32,000 nucleotides of DNA from the NCBI RefSeq assembly GCF_001945605.1, contig NZ_MPKA01000052.1, positions 1 through 32,000 of the forward strand, read 5' to 3'. This document shows, piece after piece, positions 1-18,333 of the stretch. The notes under the pieces are model-generated. The model saw only the letters and a list, made by a program, of their open reading frames with translations, was not told the origin of the DNA and did no database searches. The translations under genes and the position numbers were made by a program. The stretch is from Dubosiella newyorkensis. GTDB taxonomy: Bacteria > Bacillota_I > Bacilli_A > Erysipelotrichales > Erysipelotrichaceae. Position 1 is the stretch's first letter. Each line of letters begins with the position of its first letter.

Positions 1-284
1 TGGACAACGGAAGTCTGCCGATGACCAATTCGCTTGCCGAAAGGACGATCCGAAATTTTGCGGTAGGAAGAAACAATTGGCTGTTTTCGGGAAGTCCTAG
101 AGGAGCCAAGGCTTGCGGAGTGCTCTATTCGATCGTAGAAAGCGCCAAAGCCAATGGGCTGATCCCTTACAAATACATCCTTCACCTTTTAAAAGAACTT
201 TCAAGACATGCTGGAAAGCTGACCAGCGAAATACTGGAGGAATGTATGCCTTGGAATCCAAATTTGATCAGCATATGCCAATAA
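1..284 (+). CDS. IS66-family transposase, C-terminal part (gene begins upstream of the window)
   Basis: The frame is open from base 3 (DNGSLPMTNSLAERTIRNFAVGRNNWLFSGSPRGAKA...VESAKANGLIPYKYILHLL). This NxxE(R)xIR...GRKNWLF...G block is the conserved C-terminus of IS66 transposases. Stop codon at 282-284. Confidence 0.8.
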   Translation, partial: DNGSLPMTNSLAERTIRNFAVGRNNWLFSGSPRGAKACGVLYSIVESAKANGLIPYKYILHLLKELSRHAGKLTSEILEECMPWNPNLISICQ

Positions 285-292
285 AAACAAAG

Positions 293-340
293 ACGCTCAT
301 CGCAGGCAGAGATATTGTCTCTGATTCGATGAGCGTTTTC
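293..340 (+). terminator. Hairpin downstream of the transposase stop
   Basis: A 10-bp stem, ACGCTCATCG (293-302) with CGATGAGCGT (327-336), contains an inner CAGAGA/TCTCTG stem and is followed by TTTTC. Confidence 0.45.
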
Positions 341-366
341 TATACGCTGTTTTATTTCCCGCTTAC

Positions 367-401
367 AAAAAAAGCGAAAACGGATTGGATCATCCATTTT
401 C
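367..401 (-). terminator. Rho-independent terminator of the surface-appendage operon
   Basis: The minus strand reads GAAAATGGATGATCCAATCCGTTTTC followed by GCTTTTTTT. It lies 10 nt after the stop of the 412-1386 gene, and its T-tract abuts the IS end at 366. Confidence 0.6.
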
Positions 402-411
402 ACTTTTATTC

Positions 412-1386
412 TTATTCTTGATCCTCTTTGTGAAGGCGTTTCAACACTTCGTCTTCCGCTTTCTTTTTACGATAGAAATAGTAGCCTCCTCCCGCAAGCG
501 CGATCAAGGCCAATACGATCAAACCGATCATCCAAGGATTGATGGATGATGATTTTGTTTGGTTGTTCGTCGCTGGCTTTGAATTCGGTCCGGCCAATGG
601 CACATCTTCTTCGTCTAGATCAATAAGATCTTGCGGTTGTTGAGGGGTCGTTGGCGTCGTTCCTTCCTCTGTTGGTGTTTGATCTTGTCCTGGCGTAGTC
701 GTTTGATCTTCTGCCGGCGTCGTTCCTTCCTCTGTTGGTGTTTGATTGTCTGGCGTTGTTGGCGCTGCCGGTGTTGTTGGTTGCGTAGGTGTGGTAGGCG
801 TGGTTGGTTGAGCCGGTGTCGCTGGAGTTGTCGTTTGCGGCTGTTCGATTGGCGCATACACGAACGTGAATTGGTTTTCGGCCGCGTTGGCGCTTAACGT
901 GCGAACAAGATTGTAGGCTTGAGGCAAATACCCTTCAAAGTATCGATAGGCCACGACAGGACGATCGCCTACGTTGCCATAAAACGTTTGTGGTTGCGCT
1001 AACGCATTGCCTGCCTGATCGACGTATTGGATCGTATACTGGGTGCCTTCGCCCTTGATTCCATACACGATCACAAAGTCAGCATCTTCTTTGGCGATGG
1101 CAGGAAGTGGCTGCGCCATCGTGTTATTGTCTTTTCCGCTTTCTTTGAAGCCTTTGACATAGTACTTGTCATTGTCGAGTTGCACGCGCTCTAAAGAAAA
1201 CAAGTCACTTATTGAAGCGCCTGGCTGCACGATCGTTTCGACCATTTCTTGTCCGTCGATCGTTCCTTGTTTTCCCGAATAGATCCGGATCGTATACGGA
1301 TACGAACTCTCTTCCGCGCGAATCGGTAAGAAAGAAAAACAAAAGAAGAAAACGCTCAGCAAAGAAAAGAGTAATTTTTTCTTCAT
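412..1386 (-). CDS. Secreted surface protein with a MucBP-like domain, a Pro/Thr-rich stalk and a C-terminal TM anchor
   Basis: Signal peptide MKKKLLFSLLSVFFFCFSFLPIRA. The block YTIQYVDQAGNALAQPQTFYGNVGDRPVVAYRYFEGYLPQAYN...FTFVY matches the MucBP pattern. A long P/T/Q/E-rich linker follows, then the TM helix WMIGLIVLALIALAGGGYYFY and a basic/acidic tail. There is no LPXTG. Only a 1-nt gap separates it from the upstream gene. Confidence 0.6.
   Translation of the reverse strand: MKKKLLFSLLSVFFFCFSFLPIRAEESSYPYTIRIYSGKQGTIDGQEMVETIVQPGASISDLFSLERVQLDNDKYYVKGFKESGKDNNTMAQPLPAIAKEDADFVIVYGIKGEGTQYTIQYVDQAGNALAQPQTFYGNVGDRPVVAYRYFEGYLPQAYNLVRTLSANAAENQFTFVYAPIEQPQTTTPATPAQPTTPTTPTQPTTPAAPTTPDNQTPTEEGTTPAEDQTTTPGQDQTPTEEGTTPTTPQQPQDLIDLDEEDVPLAGPNSKPATNNQTKSSSINPWMIGLIVLALIALAGGGYYFYRKKKAEDEVLKRLHKEDQE
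653..746. repeat. Perfect 31-bp direct repeat with a 63-bp period inside the PT-rich linker
   Basis: GGCGTCGTTCCTTCCTCTGTTGGTGTTTGAT occurs at 653-683 and again at 716-746. On the minus strand it encodes the repeated peptide (Q)TPTEEGTTP. Confidence 0.9.
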
Positions 1387-1387
1387 A

Positions 1388-2125
1388 TTATCGATTCTCC
1401 TTTCGCGCTTTGATCCCGATCAAGGCAAGAAGAAGCAGTACGATCCCGCTCAAAAAGCTCAATAGAGTCCATGGTGTTTGGTTGGTTTTGGTGGATGTAT
1501 TGACTGGTCGAGTGCTTTCTCCTGTGGATGTGTTTGGTCGATTGCTTCCTTCTTCGACTGCGAACTGCATTTGCAGATCGGCTAGCGTGGATTGATAATC
1601 GTTGCCTTGGGTTTCTCCGTCTAGAGATACGCGCAATTCGATCTTTCCTTCTTGGCTTTTTTGCAGCGTGTCTAGATAAAACCATTGTTCCATCGATTGA
1701 TCGACGCCATGTAAGCCTTCGTTGTTTTGCGTACGATCTTCACCACCGACAGATTCAGAATCAAAGAGAGTTTGGACTCGTCCATTCACGCCTGTATACG
1801 TGAGCTTGTAGGTATAGGCGCCTCCTTGAGCGACGTTGACCGAGTCTTCTAATGAGCTTAAGATTTTATGAGACATATACCATTCGGTGGATTTGTTGTT
1901 TTGATTGTCCAGCTTGATTTGGAGGATAGCTTCGTCGCCTGGCTGCATTTGATAGATCGTATCGTCGATCGAACCGGTCGTAAAATTGCTTTCCATCTTT
2001 TCGTTTTTTGTGAATGTCACTTTCCAATCGTTTCCTCCAGGAATCGTTTGGGCAAAGGCAGGTTGGAAAAGAGCGCTCAATCCAAGCAAGGAAGCTAAAG
2101 AATATTTTATGAGTGTTTTATGCAT
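1388..2125 (-). CDS. TasA/camelysin-like secreted protein with a C-terminal TM anchor
   Basis: Sec signal peptide ending AFA|Q. MQPGDEAILQIKLDNQNN resembles the TasA LKPGDKLTKDFQFENNG strand. GNDYQSTLADLQMQFAVEE resembles the TasA C-terminal QNKYQGNSIKLQFSFEATQ. The protein ends in TPW plus the TM helix LLSFLSGIVLLLLALIGI and KARKENR. The family assignment is from memory of TasA only. Confidence 0.5.
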   Translation of the reverse strand: MHKTLIKYSLASLLGLSALFQPAFAQTIPGGNDWKVTFTKNEKMESNFTTGSIDDTIYQMQPGDEAILQIKLDNQNNKSTEWYMSHKILSSLEDSVNVAQGGAYTYKLTYTGVNGRVQTLFDSESVGGEDRTQNNEGLHGVDQSMEQWFYLDTLQKSQEGKIELRVSLDGETQGNDYQSTLADLQMQFAVEEGSNRPNTSTGESTRPVNTSTKTNQTPWTLLSFLSGIVLLLLALIGIKARKENR

Positions 2126-2140
2126 CGTTTTCCTTCCTTT

Positions 2141-2911
2141 CTAATTGCGCGACAAGGTCGTTCCATTGACTGCGATTTGTTTTCCCCATGAAGAATGGAT
2201 CGCTTCGGCTGCGTTGTGTTCTTGGATCGCATCGACTTTGGCTTCGACACAAAACTTTAATTTATCGTAAGTATAGTAGGATGTTGTGACTTTTTTTCCG
2301 TCTTCGATGGTTTCAACGACTTTTTTGTGTTCTTGCAGCTTGCCGTCGATCTTGATCGAGTCGATGAGTGGTGTTGTTTTCTTTCCGACTTCAAGCAAGT
2401 TTTTGTAGTAATAGACGGCTCGTTCGGCTGTGTCTTCGTCGATTTGGAACCAATCGTCTTTATTGACATAGTTGAGTTCGATCAAGTCTGGATCGAGAGT
2501 CGTGACTTTTTGGTCGTTTTCATCGAGCCAATATTTTGTGATCGTGACGCGAACGAATTCTGGGATCTGTCCTGAATTTTGAACTTCGAGCACGGTTGGA
2601 TAGCGTTTTCCAAGTTTGATATTTTCTTCCACATCACTGAAAAGTAGGCCGGTGTTTTGAATATCGTTGGCGTTGTTGTTTTCGTTCCAGTTTCCTTCGG
2701 ATTGATAGTCGCGGCTCGAAATGACTTTATCGTTTTCTAACAAACTTACACCAATTTGAGTGAGTTGGAGTCTTGAGTTGTAGGTTGGCGAAAAGTATGT
2801 GAGCGCGGCTTTTGTTGTTCCGATGCCGGATTGGATGAGCAAGACGGCTGCCAATACAAGTAGTGTGATCGTCGTTGCGGGTTTGGATAGAAAATCTTTG
2901 ATGTGTTTCAT
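2141..2911 (-). CDS. TasA/camelysin-family protein with a SipW-type signal peptide
   Basis: The N-terminus MKHIKDFLSKPATTITLLVLAAVLLIQSGIGTTKAALTYFS carries the A-x-x-Y/F-F-S/T motif typical of TasA-type signal peptides. The C-terminus has a KLKFCVEAKVDAIQ strand like the F-x-F-x-A-x-Q ending of the family. It overlaps the upstream gene by 4 nt. Confidence 0.55.
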   Translation of the reverse strand: MKHIKDFLSKPATTITLLVLAAVLLIQSGIGTTKAALTYFSPTYNSRLQLTQIGVSLLENDKVISSRDYQSEGNWNENNNANDIQNTGLLFSDVEENIKLGKRYPTVLEVQNSGQIPEFVRVTITKYWLDENDQKVTTLDPDLIELNYVNKDDWFQIDEDTAERAVYYYKNLLEVGKKTTPLIDSIKIDGKLQEHKKVVETIEDGKKVTTSYYTYDKLKFCVEAKVDAIQEHNAAEAIHSSWGKQIAVNGTTLSRN

Positions 2912-3420
2912 GATCTTCCTCCTCTTTCGATTTGTATCGCTTTGCCCCAGTTTGGCGAAAGGGCGTTGCCGTCTTCGTCAAATTCTACGGGTACCGATTC
3001 TGAAAGCACGACGACGTTGAATTCGGTTGGCGTGTTTTCTTGATCGGGTTCGATCTTGATCAACAAAGGGTTTGTGGATGTGTTTTGTTCTGTTAAATAG
3101 GTGTTGTAATAGTAATATCCATCATTTCCTTGGCTCCAGCCTTGGGATGGTGTGTAGGTCAATGTCGTGTTTGTTGGCGCGATCGCTAGTACACGGACAT
3201 AGACGGGTTGGGAGCCTTCTTCTAGAGTGACTGTCACGCTTTTTTGGAGTGGTCCTGGAATCTCTTCTTCAATTTTGGTTTCATGGCTTAAGTTGATTTC
3301 TTTGACGCCTCTTCCTGCTACGTAGGTTGTAAAGTAGGCGTAGGCTTGTGGGAGCGTAAAGAAAAGGATGCCGCATAATGCGAGGCAGGATAGTATCAAA
3401 TTCCACGTTCTTTTCATCAT
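2908..3420 (-). CDS. Small secreted protein with a TasA-type signal peptide
   Basis: MMKRTWNLILSCLALCGILFFTLPQAYAYFTTY carries the AYAYFT motif. It is 170 aa and has 4-nt ATGA-type overlaps with both neighbours, which suggests translational coupling. Confidence 0.45.
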   Translation of the reverse strand: MMKRTWNLILSCLALCGILFFTLPQAYAYFTTYVAGRGVKEINLSHETKIEEEIPGPLQKSVTVTLEEGSQPVYVRVLAIAPTNTTLTYTPSQGWSQGNDGYYYYNTYLTEQNTSTNPLLIKIEPDQENTPTEFNVVVLSESVPVEFDEDGNALSPNWGKAIQIERGGRS

Positions 3421-4433
3421 TGTCCTCCTCGGTCTTGTTCTAAGTCGTTGCCGTTGTTGGTGTACTGGTTTTTGATCGAGCTTCCGTGATGGTCGGTATT
3501 GTTCGAGTCGTTTTTAAACGAGACGGCACTGATTTCATCTCCGATTTGGGCGATCGTTCCCGTTTGGAGTTTTTCTTCGGTTGGAATGTACGAGGCGCCC
3601 GAATAGATTTCTGTGACTTCTACGTACGATCCGACAGGAATGCAATCAAGGATTTCGATCGTGTCGTTTCCGGAAGCGTTCATTACGATCGTTTCTACGT
3701 TTGAGTAGACGAGTTCACTTTTGGTTTCATCGGTGTAGGCGTCGATTTTATAGACGAAGGTGGCGGGTCCGTTGCCGTCGTGTCGTTCGAGTGTTTTGTG
3801 GATGCGGAGTGATCCGTTTCGAAGTTCTTGTTCGACTTTGAGCGTGATGGTCGTATCGTATTTCCAGTCGGTTGGGTTGGCGGTCGAGATTACGTCATCC
3901 ACTTTTTCTTTGGTTGGCAAGGAAAAGAGGATGGGTGTGTATAAATATTCATACTTCCCGGATTGGGAGATGGTGATCGTTTCTCCGCGCATGTTCTTTT
4001 TGGAATACGTTTCTAGATCGCTTCCTCTTGGTACGGCTAGATAGAGTCCGGATTCGATCGTTTCTTTCTCGTTCAGTCGTGTTTGGGTGATTGGTTGGAT
4101 CGATTGTTCGAGAATGAGGTCGAGCGCGTCGGAGGCGATACGAGTGTATTTGGTTTCGTCAAGTGTTTCTAAGTTTTCAAACTCGGAGGCGAGTGGTGAA
4201 AATTCTTCGTTGATCGAGAAGGAGTAGGTGTCATAGTTTGGATCGGGCACGATACTTCCTATCTTGTATAGGTCGATCTGTAAAGATGAGTTTTTGATGT
4301 CTTCATCGCCGGCATGGACAAATTCTACTGAGCATGGCACGCCGGTGTCGATGGCGAGTGTTTTTTGATGAAAACTAAAGCCGGCTATGAGGATGGAAGC
4401 AACGGCTAGGATCCATAGCTTTTTCTTTTTCAT
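3417..4433 (-). CDS. Secreted pilin-like protein with a CnaB-like C-terminal domain and no cell-wall sorting signal
   Basis: The tracked ORF starts at a GTG (4451). The ATG at 4433 (MKKKKLWILAVASILIAGFSF...) lies 8 nt after GGAAAGGA and is the more likely start. It has a signal peptide. The C-terminal block GSLRIHKT...ATFVYKI...VGSYVEVTEIY...AVSFKND has the K/E/N pattern of isopeptide-bonded stalk domains. Only 4 nt separate it from the sortase stop. Confidence 0.5.
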   Translation of the reverse strand: MKKKKLWILAVASILIAGFSFHQKTLAIDTGVPCSVEFVHAGDEDIKNSSLQIDLYKIGSIVPDPNYDTYSFSINEEFSPLASEFENLETLDETKYTRIASDALDLILEQSIQPITQTRLNEKETIESGLYLAVPRGSDLETYSKKNMRGETITISQSGKYEYLYTPILFSLPTKEKVDDVISTANPTDWKYDTTITLKVEQELRNGSLRIHKTLERHDGNGPATFVYKIDAYTDETKSELVYSNVETIVMNASGNDTIEILDCIPVGSYVEVTEIYSGASYIPTEEKLQTGTIAQIGDEISAVSFKNDSNNTDHHGSSIKNQYTNNGNDLEQDRGGQ

Positions 4434-4455
4434 AATCTTTTTCCTTTCCACTTTT

Positions 4456-5277
4456 CTATTTCTTAAAACGATCTTTCAAGAAGATCCATCCAACGAGGAA
4501 GAAGAGGATCGTTCCTGCGATAACGATGGCTACAAGATTTCGGTCGAACAAGGAGGCGTCTTGGCTTCCATCCCCTTCGAGGGCGTTTGGAACCCGATGA
4601 CCTCGCACAAGCAAACGATGGGAATTGATTCCATAGGGTGTACAGGTCACGAGTGTCATTAAATCTTGGCCTGGAACGATTTCAAGGTCGGATGTTTCTT
4701 CCGGAAGCACAGTGCGGATCTGATCGACTTCATAGGTCAATGTTTTTCCTAATACGCGAACCGTAAATGTGTCGCCTTCGACGAGCTTGGTAATGTCGGT
4801 AAACAGGCGGGCACTTGGTAGTCCTCGATGTCCAGATATGACGGCATGGGTGCTTTCTCCTCCAACAGGAAGCGAGCTTCCTTCAATGTGGCCCACATTT
4901 TTTTGGAGCAGGTCTTCATCTGTTCCATGAAAAATAGGCAAATTGATATTCGCTTTTGGGATGTTGACCGATCCCATCAATCCATCGTCGTTCACGTTCA
5001 ATGTTTTTTCATAAAGTTCATGCATTTCTTCGGAAGGAAAGTAGCGATTCTTTTCTTCCAGAAGCAGTTGGTTGTATTTGACGGCGTCGGCATACATCAG
5101 TTCAAGATCTTCTTCTTGAAGCTTAGCGACCGCTTCGTCGTATGTCGCGACAGCACGGGCCGCATACATTTCATTCCACCAATTGGCGATTGTAGGATAC
5201 AACAGCAAGGACAGGCCTACCGTGAAAGCCACAATCAGCAGAATTGTCGTAAAATTCTTTTGTATGTATTTTTTCAT
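4456..5277 (-). CDS. srtC: Class C (pilus-polymerising) sortase
   Basis: It has an N-terminal TM helix, the block GSVNIPKANINLPIFHGT, HAVISGHRG, the catalytic motif TLVTCTPYGINSHRLLVRG, and a second C-terminal TM helix typical of class C sortases. Confidence 0.9.
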   Translation of the reverse strand: MKKYIQKNFTTILLIVAFTVGLSLLLYPTIANWWNEMYAARAVATYDEAVAKLQEEDLELMYADAVKYNQLLLEEKNRYFPSEEMHELYEKTLNVNDDGLMGSVNIPKANINLPIFHGTDEDLLQKNVGHIEGSSLPVGGESTHAVISGHRGLPSARLFTDITKLVEGDTFTVRVLGKTLTYEVDQIRTVLPEETSDLEIVPGQDLMTLVTCTPYGINSHRLLVRGHRVPNALEGDGSQDASLFDRNLVAIVIAGTILFFLVGWIFLKDRFKK

Positions 5278-5374
5278 GTAGGACTCTCCTTACCATTGCG
5301 GCAAGAGAAAGAGCAGTAAAAGCTCTTCTCTCTAACAATGGCTAATCAACTTTAAACAAAATCTTTTTAAGATC

Positions 5375-7036
5375 TTATCCTTCGTTGCTCATTCTTTTTT
5401 TCGTGATCAACAAGATCGCAGAACCTACTAGGAGCACTCCACCGATCACGTAGAGCATTGTGGTTCCCATGCCACCAGTTTCAGGGAGGGTAGTTCCTTT
5501 GGTGTTTAAGATGTTTCCGGTAACAACACCTGTATTTGTATCCCCGGTTCCACTTGTACCATCGACAGTCATAGTTAAATCAGTAACACTACTTCCATCA
5601 TGATCTGCAGTGATTTTTATTTCAAATGGATTTGCTGGAGTATTGTATCCAGTTGGTGCAACAACCTCATATAACTTATAATCACCAGCATCTAAACCAA
5701 TAATGCTAAATGTTCCATCTTTCGCAGACTTAATATTTCCTTCCTTTGGAAGACTCTCTTTTTTTCCATCCCATTTTGTCCACATAGTAATCTTGCCATT
5801 AGTTACTAAGGCATATTCATTATTGTTTCTAGTAATGATAAATTCAGCACCTTCTAATTTTTCGGTTGTTAAAGCTCCATCCACTTTAGTCCCATTTAAT
5901 GTAAAGTTATATACATAAACCGTTTTTTCTGTTGTTTCCCCATCTCCACCAGTATTTGGATTATTAGAATATTCTAGCTTTACTTTATTGTTTTCTTGGA
6001 AAGCAGCACTACTATTTAAAGTCGCTGTATATTCAATAACAATAAAATCACCTGCTGTAATATATCGTTTAGAGGAACCATATGGAGTAGTTTTTAAATC
6101 TGGTAAATTTACTGAAAAGCTTCCTCCGCCATTATCCAATGTTTCATCAGTTAAAGTATAATGGTTACTACCAATCAAATTGGTTTTTACCAACCCTTCC
6201 TCATCGTATGTTAAAACACCGTTAACTTCTTTTGCAGACACGCTATATACTTTTATATCATCATTAAATGATAATCCGTTAGATAAAGTATCTATAAAAT
6301 TAAACTTATATGTATCATAATGAGTCATATCTGGAACTTGAGCAGATAGTCTAAATGTAATGCTATCTCCAATACTATAGTCAGCTGAATTACCAAAACC
6401 TTGACTCTTTCCATTTTCTTTATCCTCGACTTCTTTGGTTACATCAACATCTTCTGTTTTAGGTTTAATCGTAATATCACCTACTACTTGAAGAACTGCT
6501 GGGTTTACAGAACCCGTAGTAGTCTCATCAACGATCAAGTAATATCCATCTTGAACAAGTGCAGAATATTCACCATTTTCGGGTTTCAACACTGTTTTAT
6601 CAACGTTATCAGGAATCTTTTTATCTTCAGCATCATTATCTGCTAATACATCATAGATAACCTTTGCTAACTTAATTCCTTGGTCATCGGTAAAACCATC
6701 AAGTGCTTTAGCAACTTCTTTTGCTTCTGATGTAGTTTTAAGTTTTTTAACAGCATCAACATCTGTGAAGTTATTTTTAAGACTATTAATCAATGTTGTT
6801 TCTGCCTGTGCACTTGTAATTGCGTCACCCCAAGTTACATCAGCTAAAACTTCATCAGGAGTATCTCCTGATTTTGTTCCTTTAAAAATTTGATAAGCAG
6901 TAAATGTACGCCCAGACAAATTAGTTTTTCCTGTTTCAGTTTCGACTGTAACCTTCGCTGCCGAAACAGAAGTCGTTAATGCAAAAGCCATCGCTAATGC
7001 AACAACACTTCCAAACAATTTTTTAATCATTTTCAT
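5375..7036 (-). CDS. LPXTG-anchored major (shaft) pilin
   Basis: It has a signal peptide and an E-box-like YKLYEVVAPTGYN. A candidate pilin-motif lysine sits in GDITIKPKTED. The sorting signal is LPETGG followed by a hydrophobic helix and KKRMSNEG. The gene lies between the adhesin and the class C sortase. Confidence 0.8.
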   Translation of the reverse strand: MKMIKKLFGSVVALAMAFALTTSVSAAKVTVETETGKTNLSGRTFTAYQIFKGTKSGDTPDEVLADVTWGDAITSAQAETTLINSLKNNFTDVDAVKKLKTTSEAKEVAKALDGFTDDQGIKLAKVIYDVLADNDAEDKKIPDNVDKTVLKPENGEYSALVQDGYYLIVDETTTGSVNPAVLQVVGDITIKPKTEDVDVTKEVEDKENGKSQGFGNSADYSIGDSITFRLSAQVPDMTHYDTYKFNFIDTLSNGLSFNDDIKVYSVSAKEVNGVLTYDEEGLVKTNLIGSNHYTLTDETLDNGGGSFSVNLPDLKTTPYGSSKRYITAGDFIVIEYTATLNSSAAFQENNKVKLEYSNNPNTGGDGETTEKTVYVYNFTLNGTKVDGALTTEKLEGAEFIITRNNNEYALVTNGKITMWTKWDGKKESLPKEGNIKSAKDGTFSIIGLDAGDYKLYEVVAPTGYNTPANPFEIKITADHDGSSVTDLTMTVDGTSGTGDTNTGVVTGNILNTKGTTLPETGGMGTTMLYVIGGVLLVGSAILLITKKRMSNEG

Positions 7037-7139
7037 GAATTTATTCCTTTCTTTAATTTCTCAAAAAACATGAGTTTATAACTTTCTTGTTATAATCCCT
7101 TTCATAAAGTTAAATAAATGAACTCTCTATTCTATTCCC

Positions 7140-10100
7140 TTATTTTTTCTTCTTGCTCCACCATCCCTTCTTTCGAAGTATTACCACATAGCCAGAAGTA
7201 GCGATCACGCTAATTCCACTGGCCATGATTGGTGGCTCAATGCCAATACCTCCCGTTTCTGGGAGCGCAAAATACTTGTTATTAAACACCTTTACATAAT
7301 GACTTAAACTCGAACCGCTTTTTATAGTACCAATAATTGTGTATGTACCATTTTCCGGTTTTTTTTCTGGTTCTTTTATGTCACAAGCACTACCTGTACT
7401 CAAACAAGATGAAACAAAAGTTAAGTCTTTCTCGTTTGAATTTATATTTTCAGTGATTTTATAATGAGAATTAATCGGCAAATATTTGATGATAGCATAC
7501 TGATTGTTCTTCAATAAAATTTTTCCTCTACTATGGAATGTAACATTTGAACGTTTCTCATCAATTATGTCATTTCCGTTTGAAGATTTAGTATAAACAG
7601 TCAAAGCATATTCATTTGCTAATTCATTGCCATTCTGATCACTCAACACTATTTCGAATTCATAATCTTTATCTGGATCAGGATCGTTTGACTGCTTTTC
7701 TAAACGAAGTTCTCCAGTTGCATTTTCAGGAGTTTTAGAAACTACATTTGGCAATGTATATTCCATATAACAAGAAGACCCCGCTTGACCACGTTCTAAA
7801 TAATAAACTGTTAAAGTATGCTTACCAGATGATAAATTGTCTCCTAATGCTTGTCGTATATCTACTTCAGCGCCAATTGATTGATGGACACCTCCAATGT
7901 CACAAATCAACTGATCATCTAAGAATACCCACATATCGTCATCTCCATAGAAGAAATAACGTAAAGGTCCTGTATAGTTTTCATCTAAGATAAAATCAAC
8001 TTGGTATTTCATACCAAATAAAGTGTTATGATCTTGATCATCATCACTTTTATAGGTTCCATTAAAACCATAAGTATTACCGTTATACTTTAATTGAGGT
8101 TGATTGTTTGGGGATCCATAATTTTTGGTCGTATCTAAATTATCTAAAGGCCAAAATCCATTATAATGAAATCTGTTTTTTTGTTGTCCTGCAGGGGTGT
8201 AAGCATCCTTTGTTAAAAATTGATTTAACGTGTCTTTATTGTAGTTATTTGGTCCTGAAACACCATAAAGTGAATAGGTGTCTCCGGTCCTATCGAATTT
8301 TAAAGAACCGTCTAATCTAACGGATTTCCCTATTGCTGTTCCTTCATCAAACAATTTAGGTGCATTTACTGCATATTGAAGATGTCCGTCAGAATCTAAA
8401 GCGCTATTTACTAATCCAAATATTGGGTGAGATCGAACAGCTCTGTGCACATCTATTGTTTTTGTATTGTTATTATTATCTTTTACAGTTTGAGTGGTAA
8501 TGAATTCTAAATTTCCTGCCGACTGATTAATACTCTTATCGTTCTTGTTTACATTTACTTGTGGATCATTGCTATAAAATTTTTCAGAAATATATTTATT
8601 TCCTAAAACTAAAGTTGGAGCATTTGTTGATGAATAATTTTTTTCATTATTAATCCCCACCCTACCATTATTATGGGTATAAATATTCAGATTAGTATCA
8701 TAAAAATCATAATCCCAAAAAGACGTCTTTTCTGTAGCTTTGGATTCGGTTTCATTAAATACCAACCGAATTTCTGTTCCTTCTGTTATCAGATAATATT
8801 TCCCTTCAAAATCATTAGGTTGTAGAGGATCATATAAATCTTTGTGTTGATCTGAATTTGTAAACCGAATATTTTTAGCTAAATCATTTGAATTGTAATT
8901 AAATTTAGACCAATTCGATTGTTCATTTGGTTTTATCCATATTTCTTTTAAACAATACGATTCTACACCATCCAATTTATTAAAATAATCTAAGCTAGGA
9001 GCTTGATGAAATTTATACTTAGTCGACGAATAAATTTCTTCTGGTTCCTTACCTAATTTTTTATTAAATTTTCCCTGAACATTTTTATAATCTTTATATT
9101 TAACAAATCCAGGGGCAAATTTCTCAGGAATTTTTGTCATATCTATAACTTGGAAAGTTGCATTTTGTCTTGCTGTTTTACCTTGATTCAAATCTTCATA
9201 AGTAGCTTCTTGGTTTTTATGGAGATATCCATAAATTTCTACTTCAAACTCAGGGTTAGGCGTTATTTGAATATTAAGAACCATAGGATCCGATGCATTT
9301 TGACTAAAAACTATAGGGGTATTAGTATAATTTTTGTTAATTAAAATACTATCATTAGCCGTTTCCGCATCAATCAAATCTGTTTCTACCGTTTTGTTGA
9401 TGTTCATTATAGAAACGCTAGCTCCTACTTCCGCCTCTGGCTTGACATCCTCCAGATCCTTCGTAGTATCATACTTCTCCACAAAAGCTTGAGTAGGTGT
9501 TAGCTCCGCATCAAACTTCTGATCCTCCAAATTGATCTCTTGGTCTTCCACAAAGAATCTAAGCTTGTAGAATGACAAATCAAGCAACTGTTCAGGATCC
9601 GTATCCTTTTCGCTTTGTTCTTTTAGCTTTTGGATTTCGAGTTGATCTTCTTCATTTTGTGTTGTTTCATCGATCTTCTCGATTTGAAGTGTAGGAATTG
9701 GTTTATTTTCCTCTTCCTCTTGTTCTTGTTTCGCTTCTTCTTGGATCTGTTCCAATTCATCTTCGGAACGATTGATTTCTTCATCGATCTTGTCTTGGAT
9801 GTTTTCTTCTGGTTCTAAGCTGAACTTTTTGATTTGGAGTTCGTTGTCTGTCGTTTTTTCTGTTTCTTCTTGTTCTTTGTTTTCTTCTTCTAGTTGTTTA
9901 TTTTCTTCTTTTTGTTCTTCTTCTTGCTCGCCAGGAATCGATCTAGGCTTTAGAGTGAGCGTGAAGTCTTCTGTTTCTACTTTGAACTCTTCTGGAAGGC
10001 GATATTCGATCTCTTCTTTTGTTTCTTCGTTTTTGTCTTCTTTTTCTTCTTCTGCTGGTTCTTCTTTTCCATCTTCTACTACTGGATCTTGTTCTGTCGG

Positions 10101-11120
10101 TTGTTTTTCATCCTCTACTTCTTGAACTTCTTGTTCTGGATGCACATAGGCCATCGTTTCATACTCTTTTTCTTGAAGAACGATTTCCTTTACTTGATCA
10201 TTCAAATCGCCCACGATGGCTTTATTCTTGTCTTGATTCACAAGAAAACCAACATAACTCTTAATTTCTTTGTCAGGAACATTTTCATCCTTTTGATCTT
10301 TGAAGAAGATCAAATCTCCATTTTGTGGTTCATATCCTTCTGGTTCAAACAACTCTTTCTTCGAAAGATCTTCGATCCATTCGTTCCAGTCGTGTCCATA
10401 TGGAATTTGTTCATTCTTGATTCCCGCATAATGAAGGACGAATGAAGCGAACATGATATTCCAGTCTTCGTATGGCTTTCCATACCATTCTCCATACCGC
10501 GTGTAATAGTGTTCTTTCCCATCAGAATCGAGTTCGAAGTTTTCTTTTACTTCCTTATAGTCTTTTTGACTCTTCGCAATCTGGACGATCTTTTCATCCA
10601 GCTTGTCGCTCAACGTTTCCGGAATCGAGTTTTCCCAATCTTCCTTCTTTTCTTTCAATTCTTTATTGGAAGTACATTCTTTCGAATGGGTGTGTTCTTC
10701 TTTTCCGCAAACAGGATCGACACTCAAATAACATTTTGGAGAATGTTCATGTCCTTCTACGCTTTCGCTCTCTTCTTTATCGCAAATCAATACTTGTTCT
10801 TGCTGGAAACACGACTCGTCATGAACATGCTCTTCACTTTCTTCCAAAGGACAAATGAGCGTTTGTTTGATTTCATAACACGAATCGTCGTGAACATGAC
10901 CTTCGATCGATTCTCCTTCTACTTTTCCGCAAAGCGGATCTTTAGAATGATAACAATCTTCTGTGTGCGTATGCTCTTCCTTATCGCAATAGAATTGCTG
11001 GGCTTCCGTTTCCAAAGTCAATGCCGGAAGGATCAGCGCATACGTTGTACAAAAGACGATCAAACAACTTAGCGCGTTCGTCACCCGTCTCCAAGAACGT
11101 TTTTTTCTCTTTCTATCCAT
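7140..11120 (-). CDS. 1326-aa LPXTG surface adhesin, probably the pilus tip protein
   Basis: In order it has a signal peptide, Cys/His knuckle repeats, a CHAP-like domain lacking the catalytic Cys and His, a roughly 190-aa Glu/Lys/Gln-rich linker, a large N/Y/K-rich body, a fibro-slime/PA14-like domain and a CnaB-like domain. The sorting signal is LPETGG plus a TM helix and RKKGWWSKKKK. Confidence 0.8.
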   Translation of the reverse strand: MDRKRKKRSWRRVTNALSCLIVFCTTYALILPALTLETEAQQFYCDKEEHTHTEDCYHSKDPLCGKVEGESIEGHVHDDSCYEIKQTLICPLEESEEHVHDESCFQQEQVLICDKEESESVEGHEHSPKCYLSVDPVCGKEEHTHSKECTSNKELKEKKEDWENSIPETLSDKLDEKIVQIAKSQKDYKEVKENFELDSDGKEHYYTRYGEWYGKPYEDWNIMFASFVLHYAGIKNEQIPYGHDWNEWIEDLSKKELFEPEGYEPQNGDLIFFKDQKDENVPDKEIKSYVGFLVNQDKNKAIVGDLNDQVKEIVLQEKEYETMAYVHPEQEVQEVEDEKQPTEQDPVVEDGKEEPAEEEKEDKNEETKEEIEYRLPEEFKVETEDFTLTLKPRSIPGEQEEEQKEENKQLEEENKEQEETEKTTDNELQIKKFSLEPEENIQDKIDEEINRSEDELEQIQEEAKQEQEEEENKPIPTLQIEKIDETTQNEEDQLEIQKLKEQSEKDTDPEQLLDLSFYKLRFFVEDQEINLEDQKFDAELTPTQAFVEKYDTTKDLEDVKPEAEVGASVSIMNINKTVETDLIDAETANDSILINKNYTNTPIVFSQNASDPMVLNIQITPNPEFEVEIYGYLHKNQEATYEDLNQGKTARQNATFQVIDMTKIPEKFAPGFVKYKDYKNVQGKFNKKLGKEPEEIYSSTKYKFHQAPSLDYFNKLDGVESYCLKEIWIKPNEQSNWSKFNYNSNDLAKNIRFTNSDQHKDLYDPLQPNDFEGKYYLITEGTEIRLVFNETESKATEKTSFWDYDFYDTNLNIYTHNNGRVGINNEKNYSSTNAPTLVLGNKYISEKFYSNDPQVNVNKNDKSINQSAGNLEFITTQTVKDNNNNTKTIDVHRAVRSHPIFGLVNSALDSDGHLQYAVNAPKLFDEGTAIGKSVRLDGSLKFDRTGDTYSLYGVSGPNNYNKDTLNQFLTKDAYTPAGQQKNRFHYNGFWPLDNLDTTKNYGSPNNQPQLKYNGNTYGFNGTYKSDDDQDHNTLFGMKYQVDFILDENYTGPLRYFFYGDDDMWVFLDDQLICDIGGVHQSIGAEVDIRQALGDNLSSGKHTLTVYYLERGQAGSSCYMEYTLPNVVSKTPENATGELRLEKQSNDPDPDKDYEFEIVLSDQNGNELANEYALTVYTKSSNGNDIIDEKRSNVTFHSRGKILLKNNQYAIIKYLPINSHYKITENINSNEKDLTFVSSCLSTGSACDIKEPEKKPENGTYTIIGTIKSGSSLSHYVKVFNNKYFALPETGGIGIEPPIMASGISVIATSGYVVILRKKGWWSKKKK
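7754..8159 (-). other. Fibro-slime / PA14-like carbohydrate-binding-type domain within the adhesin
   Basis: GFWPLD...HNTLFGMKYQVDFILDENYTGPLRYFFYGDDDMWVFLDDQLICDIGGVHQ matches the hallmark of the fibro-slime domain (TIGR02148-type): FxPLD...HNxxFT...FxFxGDDDxWVFINxxLxxDLGGxH. Confidence 0.65.
10640..11003 (-). other. Five tandem Cys...H-x-H-x3-C knuckle motifs at the adhesin N-terminus
   Basis: The copies are CDKEEHTHTEDCY, CGKVEGESIEGHVHDDSCY, CPLEESEEHVHDESCF, CDKEESESVEGHEHSPKCY and CGKEEHTHSKEC, read directly from the translation (aa 45-149). Confidence 0.75.
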
Positions 11121-11135
11121 AATTCCTTCGCCTTT

Positions 11136-11732
11136 CTAAATTCCGCTCAGCTTATTCAAAGGCCAGACTCGACCTACAAGCTTTCCTACGATCATTTCTT
11201 CTGCCACAGGACCGATTGCCTTTACACGAGAATCCATCGAAACGCTTCGATGATCTCCCATCACGAACCACCGATCTTCAGGCACTTGATACGGATATTC
11301 AATATCCGTCTGTCCGATCGACCTTTCACTCACATAGGGCTCTTCGATCTCTTCCCCATTCACATACACAACTCCATCATCATCGATGAACACCCAGTCG
11401 CCAGGACCCGCGATCACTCGCTTGACAAGAATCTTGTTGTTGTAGTAAAAGGCGATGATATCCCCCGTCTTATAATTGTTTCCTTTTACAGAAAGAACGA
11501 CATCGCCCGCCTTGAGCGTAGGTGACATACTATTTCCATAAATCTGTAAAACAGGGAGCCATAACGTAGCCACTAAAACCGCGATCGCAGCCACCACCAA
11601 TAAAGTCCCCACCGTACTTTTCAATGTCCTCACATACTGACTTTTGTGCCGAACTCGATTTCGTTCTTGAACGAGCTCATCCAGCGAGTACGAGACATCG
11701 ATCTTGTTTTCTTTGCTTGCTTTCTTTCTCAT
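11136..11732 (-). CDS. Type I signal peptidase (S26A, bacterial P-type), associated with the pilus locus
   Basis: It has a TM helix and then YGNSMSPTLKAGDVV (catalytic Ser box), ILVKRVIAGPGD (Lys box) and GDHRSVSMDSR (the GDNRxxSxDSR box). An RBS AGGGGA lies 5 nt before the ATG at 11732. Confidence 0.85.
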   Translation of the reverse strand: MRKKASKENKIDVSYSLDELVQERNRVRHKSQYVRTLKSTVGTLLVVAAIAVLVATLWLPVLQIYGNSMSPTLKAGDVVLSVKGNNYKTGDIIAFYYNNKILVKRVIAGPGDWVFIDDDGVVYVNGEEIEEPYVSERSIGQTDIEYPYQVPEDRWFVMGDHRSVSMDSRVKAIGPVAEEMIVGKLVGRVWPLNKLSGI

Positions 11733-12660
11733 TCATTCCCCTATATATAAATAGACCGTCACTTTCTTCATTTGAGAACTTCACTTCAAAATCATCAATA
11801 TTCGAACCCGAAACCACGATCTTGAACGGATGCTTTTCTTTATATTCCAGATCTTTGCGCGACCATTTGTCATACGCATCCACAAACGAATCATGCAGTA
11901 AATGTTCAGCCTGCTTCCGCACAAAGATCGCATCCTCCTTCTTTTCAAACGCCCCCAAAAAATACCGGACCTTCTGAAAAGAAATTTGAGCGATCCATTT
12001 ACCCTTCTGCTTTCTTACGCCCGTACAGCCACTCGTGTTGTCTTTACGAACTTCTTTGGAACGAAGTGACTCCACACACGTTTGCTCGACATAGTGAAGT
12101 GTTTCTTTTGGATCGTGTTCATGAACCAAACAACCACAACTTTTCACATTCCCAGACTTTAGCTGATTCAACGAAACCTCAATACGATTGCCGCAATCAC
12201 AAACACACTCCCAAACAACACTTCCCGCCAGTCGTTTTTCTGTCGGACAAATCGCCAGCAAACGACCAAACTTTTGATTCGAAATATCTTCAGACTTCTT
12301 CCCTTTCGAACAACCGCAACTCGACGTTGGATTGTTCCTTGTCAAATGCGAAGTAGGAACTTTGATTTCATTTCCACAATCACATCGGCATAGCCACAAA
12401 TAATTCGAACCCTTTTTTTCATTCAATTTACGAATGACCGTAAGCTTTCCGATCTTCTTTCCCGTCAAATCGATCGAAGAAGTTCTCGAACAACCGCAAC
12501 TATGAACAAGCTCACGCTCGATCTTGTAGCGCTCCAAAAGAATTTCATTTCCACAATCGCAACGACAAAGCCACAAAAAGCTGCCCTTTCTTTTTTGCTC
12601 GGTCTTTTTGAGCACAGTCAGCTTTCCAAAACGTTTACCACTCAAATCAACCGCTTTCAT
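11677..12660 (-). CDS. DNA-binding protein with three Cys-rich (zinc-ribbon-like) repeats and a C-terminal AP2-like domain; candidate locus regulator
   Basis: There are three repeats of about 55 aa: F/IG+LTV...W.C.CDCGN.I......L......SCGC (aa 5-57, 64-118, 125-177; nt 12130-12648). NTSGCTGVRKQKGKWIAQISFQKVRYFLGAFEKKEDAIFVRKQAE then matches the bacterial/phage AP2 pattern (nt about 11896-12048). An RBS GAAAGGG lies 6 nt before the ATG. Confidence 0.6.
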   Translation of the reverse strand: MKAVDLSGKRFGKLTVLKKTEQKRKGSFLWLCRCDCGNEILLERYKIERELVHSCGCSRTSSIDLTGKKIGKLTVIRKLNEKKGSNYLWLCRCDCGNEIKVPTSHLTRNNPTSSCGCSKGKKSEDISNQKFGRLLAICPTEKRLAGSVVWECVCDCGNRIEVSLNQLKSGNVKSCGCLVHEHDPKETLHYVEQTCVESLRSKEVRKDNTSGCTGVRKQKGKWIAQISFQKVRYFLGAFEKKEDAIFVRKQAEHLLHDSFVDAYDKWSRKDLEYKEKHPFKIVVSGSNIDDFEVKFSNEESDGLFIYRGMNEKESKQRKQDRCLVLAG

Positions 12661-12697
12661 TTCTTGCCCTTTCTAAATTGAAATCTTGAAGGTACAA

Positions 12698-12732
12698 AAA
12701 AATTCATAAAGTACCTTACTCTATGAATTTTT
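12698..12732. repeat. 11-bp inverted repeat in the leader or promoter region of the operon
   Basis: AAAAATTCATA (12698-12708) pairs with TATGAATTTTT (12722-12732). An alternative pairing is AAGGTAC (12689-12695) with GTACCTT (12711-12717). Confidence 0.7.
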
Positions 12733-12767
12733 GAATATAAATGTTATATAATGGTCGATTGTAAACT

Positions 12768-12793
12768 TGACGGCTTAAACTGACGGCTTATAT
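12768..12793 (+). repeat. Tandem direct repeat TGACGGCTTAAAC / TGACGGCTTATAT
   Basis: The two 13-mers are adjacent and share the core TGACGGCTTA. Together they also spell TTGACG-18 nt-TATAAT (12767-12796) on the plus strand. Confidence 0.85.
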
Positions 12794-12872
12794 AATAAAA
12801 TAAAAGAAAGAGAAAACTATAAAAAATCTTGTATCTATAGGCTTTTTCAGCCTAATGATCTGACCAGAATTT

Positions 12873-12885
12873 TGACGGCTTAAAC
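12873..12885 (+). repeat. Third copy of TGACGGCTTAAAC
   Basis: This is an exact copy of the 12768-12780 unit, about 105 bp away, and forms a GC-rich island in AT-rich DNA. Confidence 0.85.
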
Positions 12886-12906
12886 ATTCAAATGGAATCC
12901 TGATTT

Positions 12907-12928
12907 GTACTTTTTTCTCAAAAAGTAC
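12907..12928. repeat. 9-bp perfect palindrome, a candidate operator
   Basis: GTACTTTTT-tctc-AAAAAGTAC. It sits just downstream of a weak minus-strand promoter candidate (-35 TTGTGT at 12960-12965, 17-nt spacer, -10 TATAAG at 12937-12942). Confidence 0.6.
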
Positions 12929-13061
12929 TGTATATTCTTATAATTATTCTATAAATCTTACACAATTTAGTACATTTTGTTTAAAAGATGCTTTATTTTT
13001 TCAAATTAACTATGGTAAAATGGCTTCGTTTAGTAAGGTACTCTAGGAAAATTATACTTAT

Positions 13062-13094
13062 AAAAAACGCCTGTCCACGTAAGTATGAACAGGC
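13062..13094 (-). terminator. Rho-independent terminator of the HAD gene
   Basis: The minus strand reads GCCTGTtcatacttacgtggACAGGC followed by GTTTTTT, starting 7 nt after the stop at 13101. Confidence 0.7.
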
Positions 13095-13100
13095 ATTTTA

Positions 13101-13700
13101 TTATTCATCTTCTAAAAAATGACTTACTTTTTTCTTGAGCTGGCTTGGCTCTTTTAAATGGATCGTATGGAAGCCTAACGTATTGGCGGCTTCGATATTC
13201 TTTTCTAAATCATCGATAAATAAACATTCCATCGCGTCTAGCTCGTAGCGATCCAAAAGTGTTTTATACATTTCAAAGTCTGGCTTGATCTTCTTTTCTT
13301 GGTATGAATACACGCCTCCATCCACATGCTTGAACAATCCATTTTCTTTTAAATGCAAAAAACAATCTTGCGGAATGTTAGAAAGAATATATACCCCATA
13401 ACCTAAATCGTGGAGATGACGCATATACTCTACATTTTCTTGAATCAACTCCACATATTGCGTCCAGTCATCCATCAATACTTTGATCTCTTTTTTTAAT
13501 TCTGGCGCTTGAAGCTCACCGATCTCGATCATCTTTCCTTTCGTCAAAGTATTTTTGTCATACTGATCCCACAACGAAGCAAAATAGATCCCATTCAATT
13601 GCTCCTGGACGTGGTTGTCGCTAAAAAGTTGTTGAAGCATCCCTTCAGGATCAAATGTACAAAGTACATTCCCGATATCTAATACTATATTCTTGATCAT
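13101..13700 (-). CDS. HAD-superfamily hydrolase (subfamily IA-like)
   Basis: Motif I is VLDIGNVL (the DxGxVL variant) and the late motif is LFIDDLEKNIEAA (the DD motif). At 199 aa it is of typical size. Confidence 0.7.
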   Translation of the reverse strand: MIKNIVLDIGNVLCTFDPEGMLQQLFSDNHVQEQLNGIYFASLWDQYDKNTLTKGKMIEIGELQAPELKKEIKVLMDDWTQYVELIQENVEYMRHLHDLGYGVYILSNIPQDCFLHLKENGLFKHVDGGVYSYQEKKIKPDFEMYKTLLDRYELDAMECLFIDDLEKNIEAANTLGFHTIHLKEPSQLKKKVSHFLEDE

Positions 13701-17400: not shown

Positions 17401-18333
17401 GCGTCCGCCCGCGCCCGTGATCGGCTTAGAACGACGTCCATTGTCGATCAAAGCATCCACAGCCTCCTGAAGCATACGCTTCTCGTTTTGAACGATAATA
17501 TTCGGCGTACCCAACTCCAAAAGCTTATGAAGACGATTGTTTCGAGTAATGACACGACGATACAGATCATTCAGATCGCTCGTCGCAAAACGGCCTCCAT
17601 CCAATTGAAGCATAGGACGAAGATCAGGTGGTATTACTGGAATATTCGTCAAGATCATCCATTCCGGCTTATTATCCGAATGACGGAACGCATTGATCGT
17701 ATCCAAACGCTTGATGAGCTTTTTGCGCTTTTCTCCTTGCGCTTTCTCAAGAGCCGACTGCACTTCCTCGTACTCTTTTTCAAGATCTACATCTTTGAGT
17801 AGACGAAGGACCGCTTCCGCGCCCGTTTGCGCCGTAAAGCCATTTGGACCAAATTTCGCCAAGTTTTCCCGATATTCACGCTCCGAAAGGATCTGCTTGT
17901 AAGCAAGATCCGAATCCTTCGGATCTGTGACGATATAGCTGACAAAGTATACGACTTCTTCCAGCTGTTTTGGAGTGACATCTAAAAGAAGAGCCATCCG
18001 GCTAGGAATACCGCGCAAATACCAAATATGAGCGACAGGCGCTGCCAAATGGATATGACCCATTCTTTCGCGCCGTACGCTCGATTTTGTGATCTCTACA
18101 CCACAACGATCACAAACGACACCTTTAAAACGAACTTTCTTGTACTTTCCGCAAGCACATTCCCAGTCTTTTGTCGGTCCAAAGATCCGCTCGCAGAACA
18201 AACCGTCTTTTTCCGCTTTCTGAGAACGATAGTTGATCGTTTCAGGCTTCGTCACTTCTCCATGTGACCATTTCAAAATCGTTTCAGGACTCGCAAGCTG
18301 GACCTGAATTGAGGCAAAGTTATTGATACTCAT
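14443..18333 (-). CDS. rpoC: DNA-directed RNA polymerase beta' subunit
   Basis: It has the zinc-binding CECGKYKK...CDRCGVE, the catalytic NADFDGD, and conserved trigger-loop and bridge-helix blocks. It lies directly downstream of rpoB. Confidence 0.98.

Follow-up and report, generated by a model that had tools for sequence, protein, structure and literature searches.

We describe here a ten-gene locus (g01 to g10, positions 412-12660, minus strand) in a 32,000-nt stretch of the Dubosiella newyorkensis genome (contig NZ_MPKA01000052.1, positions 1 to 32,000; the window, from here on), in which the genes of a class C sortase pilus are followed by a five-gene module (g06-g10) that encodes two distant relatives of the BsaA family and a protein with a putative variant sorting signal. 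The module sits beside class C sortase and pilin genes in gut bacteria of three families: Erysipelotrichaceae, Lachnospiraceae and Eggerthellaceae. We consider the chances to be about even that g06-g10 build a BsaA/TasA-type fibre, assembled by donor strands upon signal-peptidase cleavage, anchored by a sortase and co-inherited with the sortase pilus, in which case the operon would comprise two surface-fibre chemistries inherited as one unit.

A module that travels with class C pilus genes

A pattern scan for the g08 family among species-representative genomes returned 444 matching loci, of which the best 80 were fetched and examined; the locus counts given below take in these best 80 together with same-species contigs, and adjacency to sortases was counted after correction for overlaps between open reading frames (ORFs). 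Of the 89 loci, 88 have the full set of g06, g07, g08 and g09 in an unchanged order, and in most of them g10 comes next. Directly upstream of the module lie one or two class C sortase genes, preceded by those of the shaft and tip pilins, and the sortase gene either abuts the module or stands at most about 1.1 kb from it in all evaluable Lachnospiraceae and Erysipelotrichaceae loci. Three Eggerthellaceae loci display a permuted order (module, SipW, signal peptidase, tip, pilin, sortase) in which the linkage is kept, and which carries it across phyla. Furthermore, in homologues of only 31-34% identity the module still occurs together with sortases. These observations bear out the proposal of the first-pass annotation (made from the letters of the window) that the pilus genes and the TasA-superfamily-like genes belong to one unit, and identify the five downstream genes as a fixed module that accompanies the sortase, not as an unrelated and variably present neighbour.

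In most lineages the module ends with a peptidase gene of its own. An archaeal/ER-type, SipW-like signal peptidase (TIGR02228 82-92 bits, cut-off 51.85) is encoded directly after g10 in 59 of the 62 evaluable Lachnospiraceae-type loci and in the three evaluable Eggerthellaceae ones (3/3), and in none of the seven evaluable Erysipelotrichaceae loci; many of the loci with SipW additionally have a g02-type peptidase gene ahead of that for the tip pilin. Since a separate SipW-type peptidase ends the module in Lachnospiraceae and Eggerthellaceae, often beside a g02-type gene, g02 is unlikely to have been the original partner of the TasA-type signal peptides, as whose processor it had been put forward. 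The Dubosiella locus is devoid of SipW, and g02 may therefore have taken over the SipW role in this lineage; the cleavage sites predicted from the letters, TKA↓A for g08 and AYA↓Y for g07, fit A-x-A rules, so that a P-type peptidase such as g02 could substitute for SipW. The idea that an IS66 insertion had removed SipW from the window was considered and rejected: a terminator stands directly after g10 and no remnant is detectable, four other Erysipelotrichaceae loci are likewise without SipW, and in the one of them with gene calls (L009) no neighbouring IS66 element was annotated.

At L090:5264-6493 a gene that follows a distant module copy, with one short gene in between, encodes a 409-amino-acid (aa) fusion of an N-terminal SipW-type peptidase (TIGR02228, 92.9 bits) and, at the C-terminus, a class B sortase (TIGR03064, 169.5 bits), with each score exceeding its cut-off; this fusion links signal-peptide processing with sortase anchoring in the system.

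Several genomes were observed to carry two copies of the whole pilus-plus-module locus (L010 and L011; L013 and L014; L045). The two copies of Erysipelotrichaceae OPF54 are apparently identical and about 110 kb apart, those of D. muris are divergent, and L045 shows a second, inverted and partial module with its own SipW.

The BsaA-like proteins g07 and g08

The window copy of g08 matched TIGR04090 (BsaA family) with 27.5 bits (E 2.3e-6), below the cut-off of 60, and matches to this model were recovered in 42 of the 51 members of the g08 family (best E 3.7e-10) as well as in 36 of the 43 members of the g07 family (best E 9.3e-9). The two families align with each other in hhalign at a probability of 94.4% (E 9.4e-8). 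Because the TIGR04090 matches are consistent and sub-threshold, we regard g07 and g08 as homologous relatives of BsaA and not as members of the family; in sequence terms they are distant relatives of BsaA and not demonstrable members of the TasA/camelysin group. Of the three TasA/camelysin-like proteins (256, 170 and 245 aa) that had been proposed, the first two (g08 and g07) can hence be placed near BsaA by profile searches, and the third (g09) cannot.

Directly after the hydrophobic core of the signal peptide both proteins carry a conserved segment (AALTYFSE in g08, AYFTTY in g07). The motifs that had been pointed out as TasA/SipW-type (KAALTYFS in g08 and AYAYFTT in g07) fall in near-invariant columns of the family alignments, by which the assignment of such signal peptides to two of the five secreted proteins is corroborated: Y29, F30 and T32 are invariant in the g07 family, and A35, A36, L37, S41 and Y44 are conserved at 90% or more in the g08 family. 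In distant copies the segment reads AYFTD or AYFSD, which is the classical SipW-type motif, and both families show an A-x-F-[ST]-[DE]-like motif after the hydrophobic core; the model of the SipW-type signal peptide (TIGR04088) matches only one of 43 members. In the AlphaFold2 monomer model of g08 (predicted local distance difference test, pLDDT, 82) residues 31-47 are the sole disordered stretch (pLDDT <50), and these conserved residues are compatible, in the model, with a donor strand. The g08 alignment has E59 and N112 as invariant residues and contains no invariant or near-invariant Lys that would complete the N-E-K isopeptide triad found in a subset of the BsaA family. A tblastn search of g08 against plasmids gave no match.

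A putative variant sorting signal in g09

The window copy of g09 ends in PVNTS, 11 aa, a hydrophobic stretch and the basic tail KARKENR. Within the g09 family T210 is invariant (and Lys43 near-invariant), and the aligned position is occupied by LPQTG or LPKTG in Eggerthellaceae, by V-[KRQ]-TG-D in Lachnospiraceae, by V-R-TS-D in Acetatifactor-type loci and by V-[ND]-TS or PNTA in Dubosiella (whose copies read PVNTS, SVDTS and SPNTA), each of these motifs preceding a hydrophobic stretch and a basic tail. Moreover, 24 of the 61 family members match NF053819 (sortase-dependent surface protein), four match TIGR01167 (LPXTG_anchor) and one matches srtB_target, the window copy itself giving no match to an anchor model. 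As the orthologue tails align at the invariant Thr and family members match models of sortase-dependent proteins and of sorting signals, g09 is most plausibly a sortase substrate whose signal is a variant one, unlike the LPETG or LPSTG of the pilins in the same loci. That the five secreted proteins have no LPXTG is literally correct for the window, and has to be qualified for g09, whose tail resembles a sorting signal and whose orthologues carry V-x-TG or LPxTG.

The view of g09 as a third TasA-like protein (based on PGD and YQ...LQ.QF..E strands) did not hold, since profile searches gave no link to TasA, camelysin or BsaA (no TIGR04090 or Peptidase_M73 match in the 61 and 43 family members searched) and the fold match is weak: a Foldseek search of the g09 model (pLDDT 80) against PDB gave weak jelly-roll-like and CUB-like matches, with TasA (5OF1) at rank 22 (E 0.015, template modelling score about 0.3). 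An hhalign match of g09 to g10 (97%) spans the signal peptides and a loosely similar N-terminal stretch, and we do not take it as established homology.

The flanking module proteins g06 and g10

Always the first gene of the module, g06 encodes an N-terminal domain and a C-terminal CnaB/SpaA-type domain (with K213, E275 and N308 invariant in the family alignment) and has no sorting signal; DUF5979 was matched in 40 and DUF7601 in 32 of the 41 family members, in agreement with the CnaB-like stalk protein that had been recognised here. At the other end of the module, g10 has two small beta domains followed by a Pro/Thr-rich linker, a DLDEEDVPLA motif and a membrane anchor, and MucBP matches in 35 of 40 family members substantiate its description as MucBP-like.

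The sortase pilus genes and the P-type signal peptidase

By its predicted products the pilus half of the locus (g02-g05) is conventional. A class C pilus locus is recognised here by its sortase, g05 (NF033745 273.5 bits, cut-off 160), together with a shaft pilin that has CnaB/SpaA-type domains and an LPXTG signal, g04 (GramPos_pilinBB 66.8, SpaA 51.7 and TIGR04226 65.2 bits; C-terminal LPETG). The match of g04 to NF033902 (SpaH/EbpB; 84.2 bits) is below the cut-off of 95, and by eye the protein has an E-box-like YKLYEVVAPTGYN and IKPK where the canonical pilin motif has YPKN. The third component, g03, has a C-terminal LPETG and matches to DUF7601 and to a fibro-slime domain, so that adhesin, major pilin and class C sortase, as originally named, are all backed by profile matches (and, for the two LPXTG proteins, by LPETG ends). 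The conserved N-terminal part of g03 (about 560 aa, 9423-11120) was seen to contain four Cys/His-rich repeats of the form C-x-K-E-E-H-x-H...C, followed by a long Glu/Lys-rich low-complexity region; neither the repeats nor this region matched a domain model in Pfam/NCBIfam-type profile searches.

The signal peptidase g02 scores 125.7 bits with TIGR02227 (cut-off 47) and 36.2 bits with TIGR02228, below the cut-off of 51.85, and on its sequence is a P-type enzyme and not a SipW or ER-type signal peptidase. Ser68 is kept in 29 of 29 relatives, Lys104 in 28 of 29 and the box E motif GDHR..S.DSR in 28-29 of 29, which agrees with the catalytically intact P-type signature reported for it.

Upstream of g02, g01 gave no direct match in Pfam, NCBIfam or PDB, and its C-terminal fragment likewise none in Pfam. 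Homologues (E 1e-27 to 1e-53) were found at L024:13162-13914, L060:6636-7337 and L081:13263-14126; these three Acetatifactor-type loci, in which the gene directly follows SipW, are the only ones outside the own species. Since the AP2 match is sub-threshold (26.6 bits, cut-off 33.3) and was obtained via the L081 homologue, the label 'AP2-like' for g01 is plausible and weakly backed. A recurrent regulatory role in the system is conceivable for this zinc-ribbon/AP2-like protein, though most loci lack it.

A proposed mechanism and its alternatives

BsaA polymerises by donor-strand exchange (PMC11580942), and by analogy with it and with AbpX we propose how the module could polymerise, which roles its subunits could have, and how sortase and signal peptidase could act on them in Dubosiella. 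A signal peptidase would cut just before the conserved A-L-T-Y-F-S of g08 or Y-F-T-T of g07, and the freed N-terminal segment would serve as the donor strand that enters the next subunit, with g08 as the major and g07 as the minor or initiating subunit. A sortase would cut g09 at its variant sorting signal and so fix the assembly to the wall, g10 would be a membrane-anchored and wall-spanning partner, and g06 a pilin-like terminal or adaptor subunit. Next to this fibre, and perhaps co-assembled with it, would stand the sortase pilus, in which g05 would polymerise the LPETG shaft pilin g04, with the LPETG adhesin g03 at the tip. The peptidase g02, encoded upstream of the pilus genes, appears from its sequence to be an active P-type enzyme; as the SipW gene is missing in Dubosiella, g02 or a peptidase encoded elsewhere would have to perform the cleavage. 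That both chemistries are physically joined in one composite appendage seems improbable to us. Such a structure would require that a sortase joins either the LPETG pilus or g09, through its variant signal, to a lysine in g06 or g09, and that this lysine-bearing adaptor is in turn retained by a polymer that g07 and g08 form by donor-strand exchange; the covalent pilus would then be carried or anchored by a non-covalent base or sheath of the TasA type, the P-type peptidase having replaced SipW as the trigger in Dubosiella.

Several results weigh against a BsaA/TasA-type fibre made by the module. No module protein reaches the TIGR04090 cut-off (60 bits), the window copy of g07 does not match this model at all, and g07, g08 and g09 have no match to Pfam Peptidase_M73 at E up to 0.1. 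Comparison with TasA (8AUR) by hhalign gave probabilities of at most 1.6% for the g07, g08 and g09 families (a single sequence against a profile being a weak test), PDB profile searches with the g08, g09 and g06 families gave chance-level matches only and no TasA, and in a Foldseek search of the g08 model against PDB TasA was absent from the top 50, the best matches being generic beta sandwiches (E about 0.01). Furthermore, the PVNTS of the window departs from any validated sortase motif, a six-frame scan of the window and of Erysipelotrichaceae loci turned up neither a SipW gene nor a remnant of one, and a scan of the locus for consensus promoters and terminators found no more sites than in shuffled sequence, for which reason the co-transcription of the ten genes is argued from their spacing.

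Alternatively, the module could be accessory machinery of the sortase pilus and build no second fibre, with g09 as basal pilin, g06 as terminal acceptor or adaptor, and g07, g08 and g10 as a non-polymerising platform or chaperone. We hold this to be unlikely, while granting it several points: the module always lies beside class C sortase and pilin genes, the pilins of the locus are restricted to tip and shaft, and g09 has a near-invariant Lys43 and a motif that differs from the LPETG/LPSTG of the pilins, as is typical of basal pilins; g06, in turn, is pilin-like, with its CnaB-type K/E/N triad intact and no sorting signal, and the BsaA paralogue BsaB forms no long oligomers (PMC11580942). However, the g09 model does not have a CnaA or CnaB pilin fold (sandwiches of the CUB-like and jelly-roll-like type rank highest among its matches), the possession of an own SipW-type peptidase in most lineages is a hallmark of TasA-type fibre loci, and the conserved disordered segment at the N-terminus of g08 fits a donor strand.

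The losses seen in Dubosiella raise the question of whether the module is decaying or has been re-purposed in this lineage: with SipW gone and the G of the g09 motif lost (PVNTS, SVDTS or SPNTA in place of V-x-TG or LPxTG), its proteins would no longer assemble into an anchored fibre and would be secreted or membrane-bound. To this we give little credence. Although neither the window nor the six scanned Erysipelotrichaceae loci have a SipW gene or fragment, the g07 of the window has fallen below TIGR04090 detection and an IS66 element abuts the operon, all five module ORFs are intact in every Erysipelotrichaceae locus despite identities of 38-58% between species, and strains with exchanged pilin genes share g07-g10 at 100% identity. 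Moreover, the signal-peptide motifs are kept, both cleavage sites fit A-x-A (so that a P-type peptidase could cut them), and the terminator right after g10 suggests a settled operon end and not a fresh disruption. The proposition that two unrelated gene sets, without functional coupling, came to be adjacent by chance or by clustering in a genomic island is already disfavoured, and in our estimation very improbable: the linkage is kept in about 89 loci of three families (one of them with a permuted order), SipW and a sortase occur fused in one protein, g09 has a tail that resembles a sorting signal, and the g05-g06 junction measures 4-22 nt, with overlaps or at most 15 nt at the later ones. What speaks for it are the spacers of 97 and 103 nt around g04, the stable stem-loops in the g04-g05 spacer, and pilin genes that differ in GC (guanine plus cytosine) content and are swapped between strains independently of the module.

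Comparison with described systems

Two preprints (2024-2026) note TasA-family genes beside LPXTG, SpaA, signal-peptidase and sortase genes (PMC11580942; bioRxiv 10.64898/2026.01.04.697558), and therefore the combination is not unrecorded, contrary to the initial impression that no system of this kind had been described. In one, an LPXTG paralogue of BsaA (BsaB) with an adjacent srtB is proposed as wall anchor of BsaA (PMC11580942); in the other, LPXTG anchors and sortases are noted in bacterial AbpX loci, and the anchors are predicted to join AbpX fibres by donor-strand complementation (bioRxiv 10.64898/2026.01.04.697558). In the literature we found no description of, or experiment on, the fixed architecture seen here (P-type signal peptidase, tip, shaft, SrtC, pilin-like protein, two BsaA-like proteins, sorted anchor, stalk and SipW), nor any account of the form without SipW that Dubosiella has.

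The C. perfringens bsa operon with its adjacent srtB resembles the present locus in having several BsaA/TasA-superfamily paralogues in one operon with a sortase gene next door, a SipW-type N-terminal motif (g07 and g08 matching the BsaA model TIGR04090) and a protein with a sorting signal (a putative one in g09) that is proposed as wall anchor. It differs in that here a class C pilus sortase, accompanied by tip and shaft pilins, takes the place of srtB, in that the Dubosiella locus has no VWA protein (BsaC), and in that the window has no SipW; furthermore, g08 lacks the conserved Lys completing the N-E-K triad, scores stay below the family cut-off, and the sorted protein (g09) is not detectably BsaA-like. 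With the tapA-sipW-tasA locus of B. subtilis and the sipW-tasA-calY locus of B. cereus our proposal shares an N-terminus that would be freed by a dedicated peptidase to become the donor strand, an accessory anchoring or initiating protein, and a small minor subunit accompanying a major one. In contrast to tapA-sipW-tasA, there is no significant sequence or fold match to TasA and no Peptidase_M73 match, anchoring in Dubosiella would apparently proceed via a sortase signal and not via TapA, and the module is embedded in a pilus operon.

Signal-peptidase homologues are also known from streptococcal pilus islands (SipA/LepA in the FCT region of S. pyogenes, SipA in PI-2 of S. pneumoniae), where a gene of the S26 family lies just upstream of or among the pilin and sortase genes, as do the g02-type genes in many of the related loci. 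Streptococcal SipA is reported to be without catalytic residues, in contrast to g02 with its retained catalytic Ser and Lys and box E motif, and the BsaA-like module present here is absent from the streptococcal islands.

The AbpX/Tafi loci of the TasA superfamily, for their part, are similar in their set of a major and a minor subunit, a tip candidate, an anchor (LPXTG or SLH) and a TIGR02228-type peptidase (bioRxiv 10.64898/2026.01.04.697558). They represent a different subfamily, with a ten-helix signal peptidase in the AbpX loci and a calcium-dependent assembly of which the Dubosiella genes gave no indication; the paper on them describes no constant association with an entire class C sortase pilus.

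Locus layout, boundaries and strain variation

The ten ORFs are tightly packed (Table 1), with junctions from g01 to g10 of -56, 15, 103, 97, 4, -4, -4, 15 and 1 nt, three of them overlaps, in accordance with the packing first noted (gaps of -56 to 103 nt). On public contigs of this species, independent gene callers arrived at an identical set of ten genes, and the whole operon was found repeatedly on many mouse-gut assemblies; the 170-aa protein g07 shares 95% identity with a D. newyorkensis cluster.

Table 1. Features of the pilus-plus-module locus and its downstream boundary in the window.
Feature	Positions	Strand	Length	Description
g01	11677-12660	minus	327 aa	Cys-rich zinc-ribbon repeats and C-terminal AP2-like segment; possible regulator, outside the conserved core
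g02	11136-11732	minus	198 aa	Predicted bacterial (P-type) signal peptidase I, catalytic site intact
g03	7140-11120	minus	1326 aa	LPETG tip adhesin, fibro-slime (PA14-like) domain and DUF7601 stalk
g04	5375-7036	minus	553 aa	LPETG shaft (major) pilin
g05	4456-5277	minus	273 aa	Class C (pilus-polymerising) sortase
g06	3417-4451	minus	344 aa, or 338 aa from ATG at 4433	Secreted pilin-like two-domain protein
g07	2908-3420	minus	170 aa	Small BsaA-family relative, SipW-type N-terminal motif A-Y-F-T-T; proposed minor/initiator subunit
g08	2141-2911	minus	256 aa	BsaA-family relative, motif A-A-L-T-Y-F-S; proposed major donor-strand subunit
g09	1388-2125	minus	245 aa	Beta-sandwich surface protein, putative degenerate sorting signal; proposed wall anchor
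g10	412-1386	minus	324 aa	Two small beta domains (second MucBP-like), linker, C-terminal membrane anchor
Intrinsic-terminator-like hairpin	366-406	minus		15-bp stem, then U tract, 6 nt past the g10 stop; sequence read directly
IS66-family transposase gene, 3' end	21-284	plus		ORF; locus boundary, public contigs break here

The hairpin after g10 is the probable end of the operon, and the minus-strand interval that contains it (285-415) has a fold-energy z-score of -7.8. On one contig (L001) a full IS66 element adjoins the same operon. The 97-nt spacer between g04 and g05 (5278-5374, minus strand) was seen to form two stable stem-loops (-35.8 kcal/mol, z -4.5) without a clear U tract; these could act as an attenuator or processing site that sets the ratio of pilin to sortase. 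Upstream of the operon the minus strand carries a gene for a HAD-family hydrolase (13101-13700) and two very large ORFs (14443-18333, 1296 aa, and 18341-22525, 1394 aa) that look, by sequence, like rpoC and rpoB; given these neighbours, the surface locus would lie in a core chromosomal context, with IS66 bounding its other side.

Comparison with a conspecific contig (L002) delimits a strain-variable cassette (5489-9422) that consists of nearly all of g04 and the C-terminal ~760 aa of g03. This cassette has no DNA homology to the conspecific contig, the flanks (228-5488 and 9423-13104) being 96.5% identical, and at the protein level the conspecific strains share 33% identity in g04, 61% in g03 and 100% in g07-g10. 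The GC content is 0.30-0.39 over about 5000-11000 and 0.44-0.47 over 1-5000, so that the low-GC stretch spans the cassette and reaches beyond it. The pattern resembles an allelic replacement that affected the adhesive parts, the chassis being conserved.

Biological meaning

Sortase pili and TasA-type fibres are usually presented as separate filament systems of Gram-positive bacteria; here BsaA-like subunits, a putative sortase-sorted anchor, a membrane stalk protein and, ancestrally, SipW accompany the genes of a class C pilus as one travelling unit. The system is widespread (444 matching loci among species representatives), and its hosts are abundant and poorly characterised gut commensals, in which structures for adhesion and biofilm formation affect the colonisation of the host. 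The swapped pilin cassette, together with an identical module, suggests possible antigenic variation, with a variable adhesin on a conserved chassis. Moreover, the SipW-less Dubosiella locus represents a natural experiment on what makes these signal peptides special, and the system as a whole raises the question of how a non-covalent donor-strand fibre is fixed to the cell wall, and whether it cooperates with a covalent pilus.

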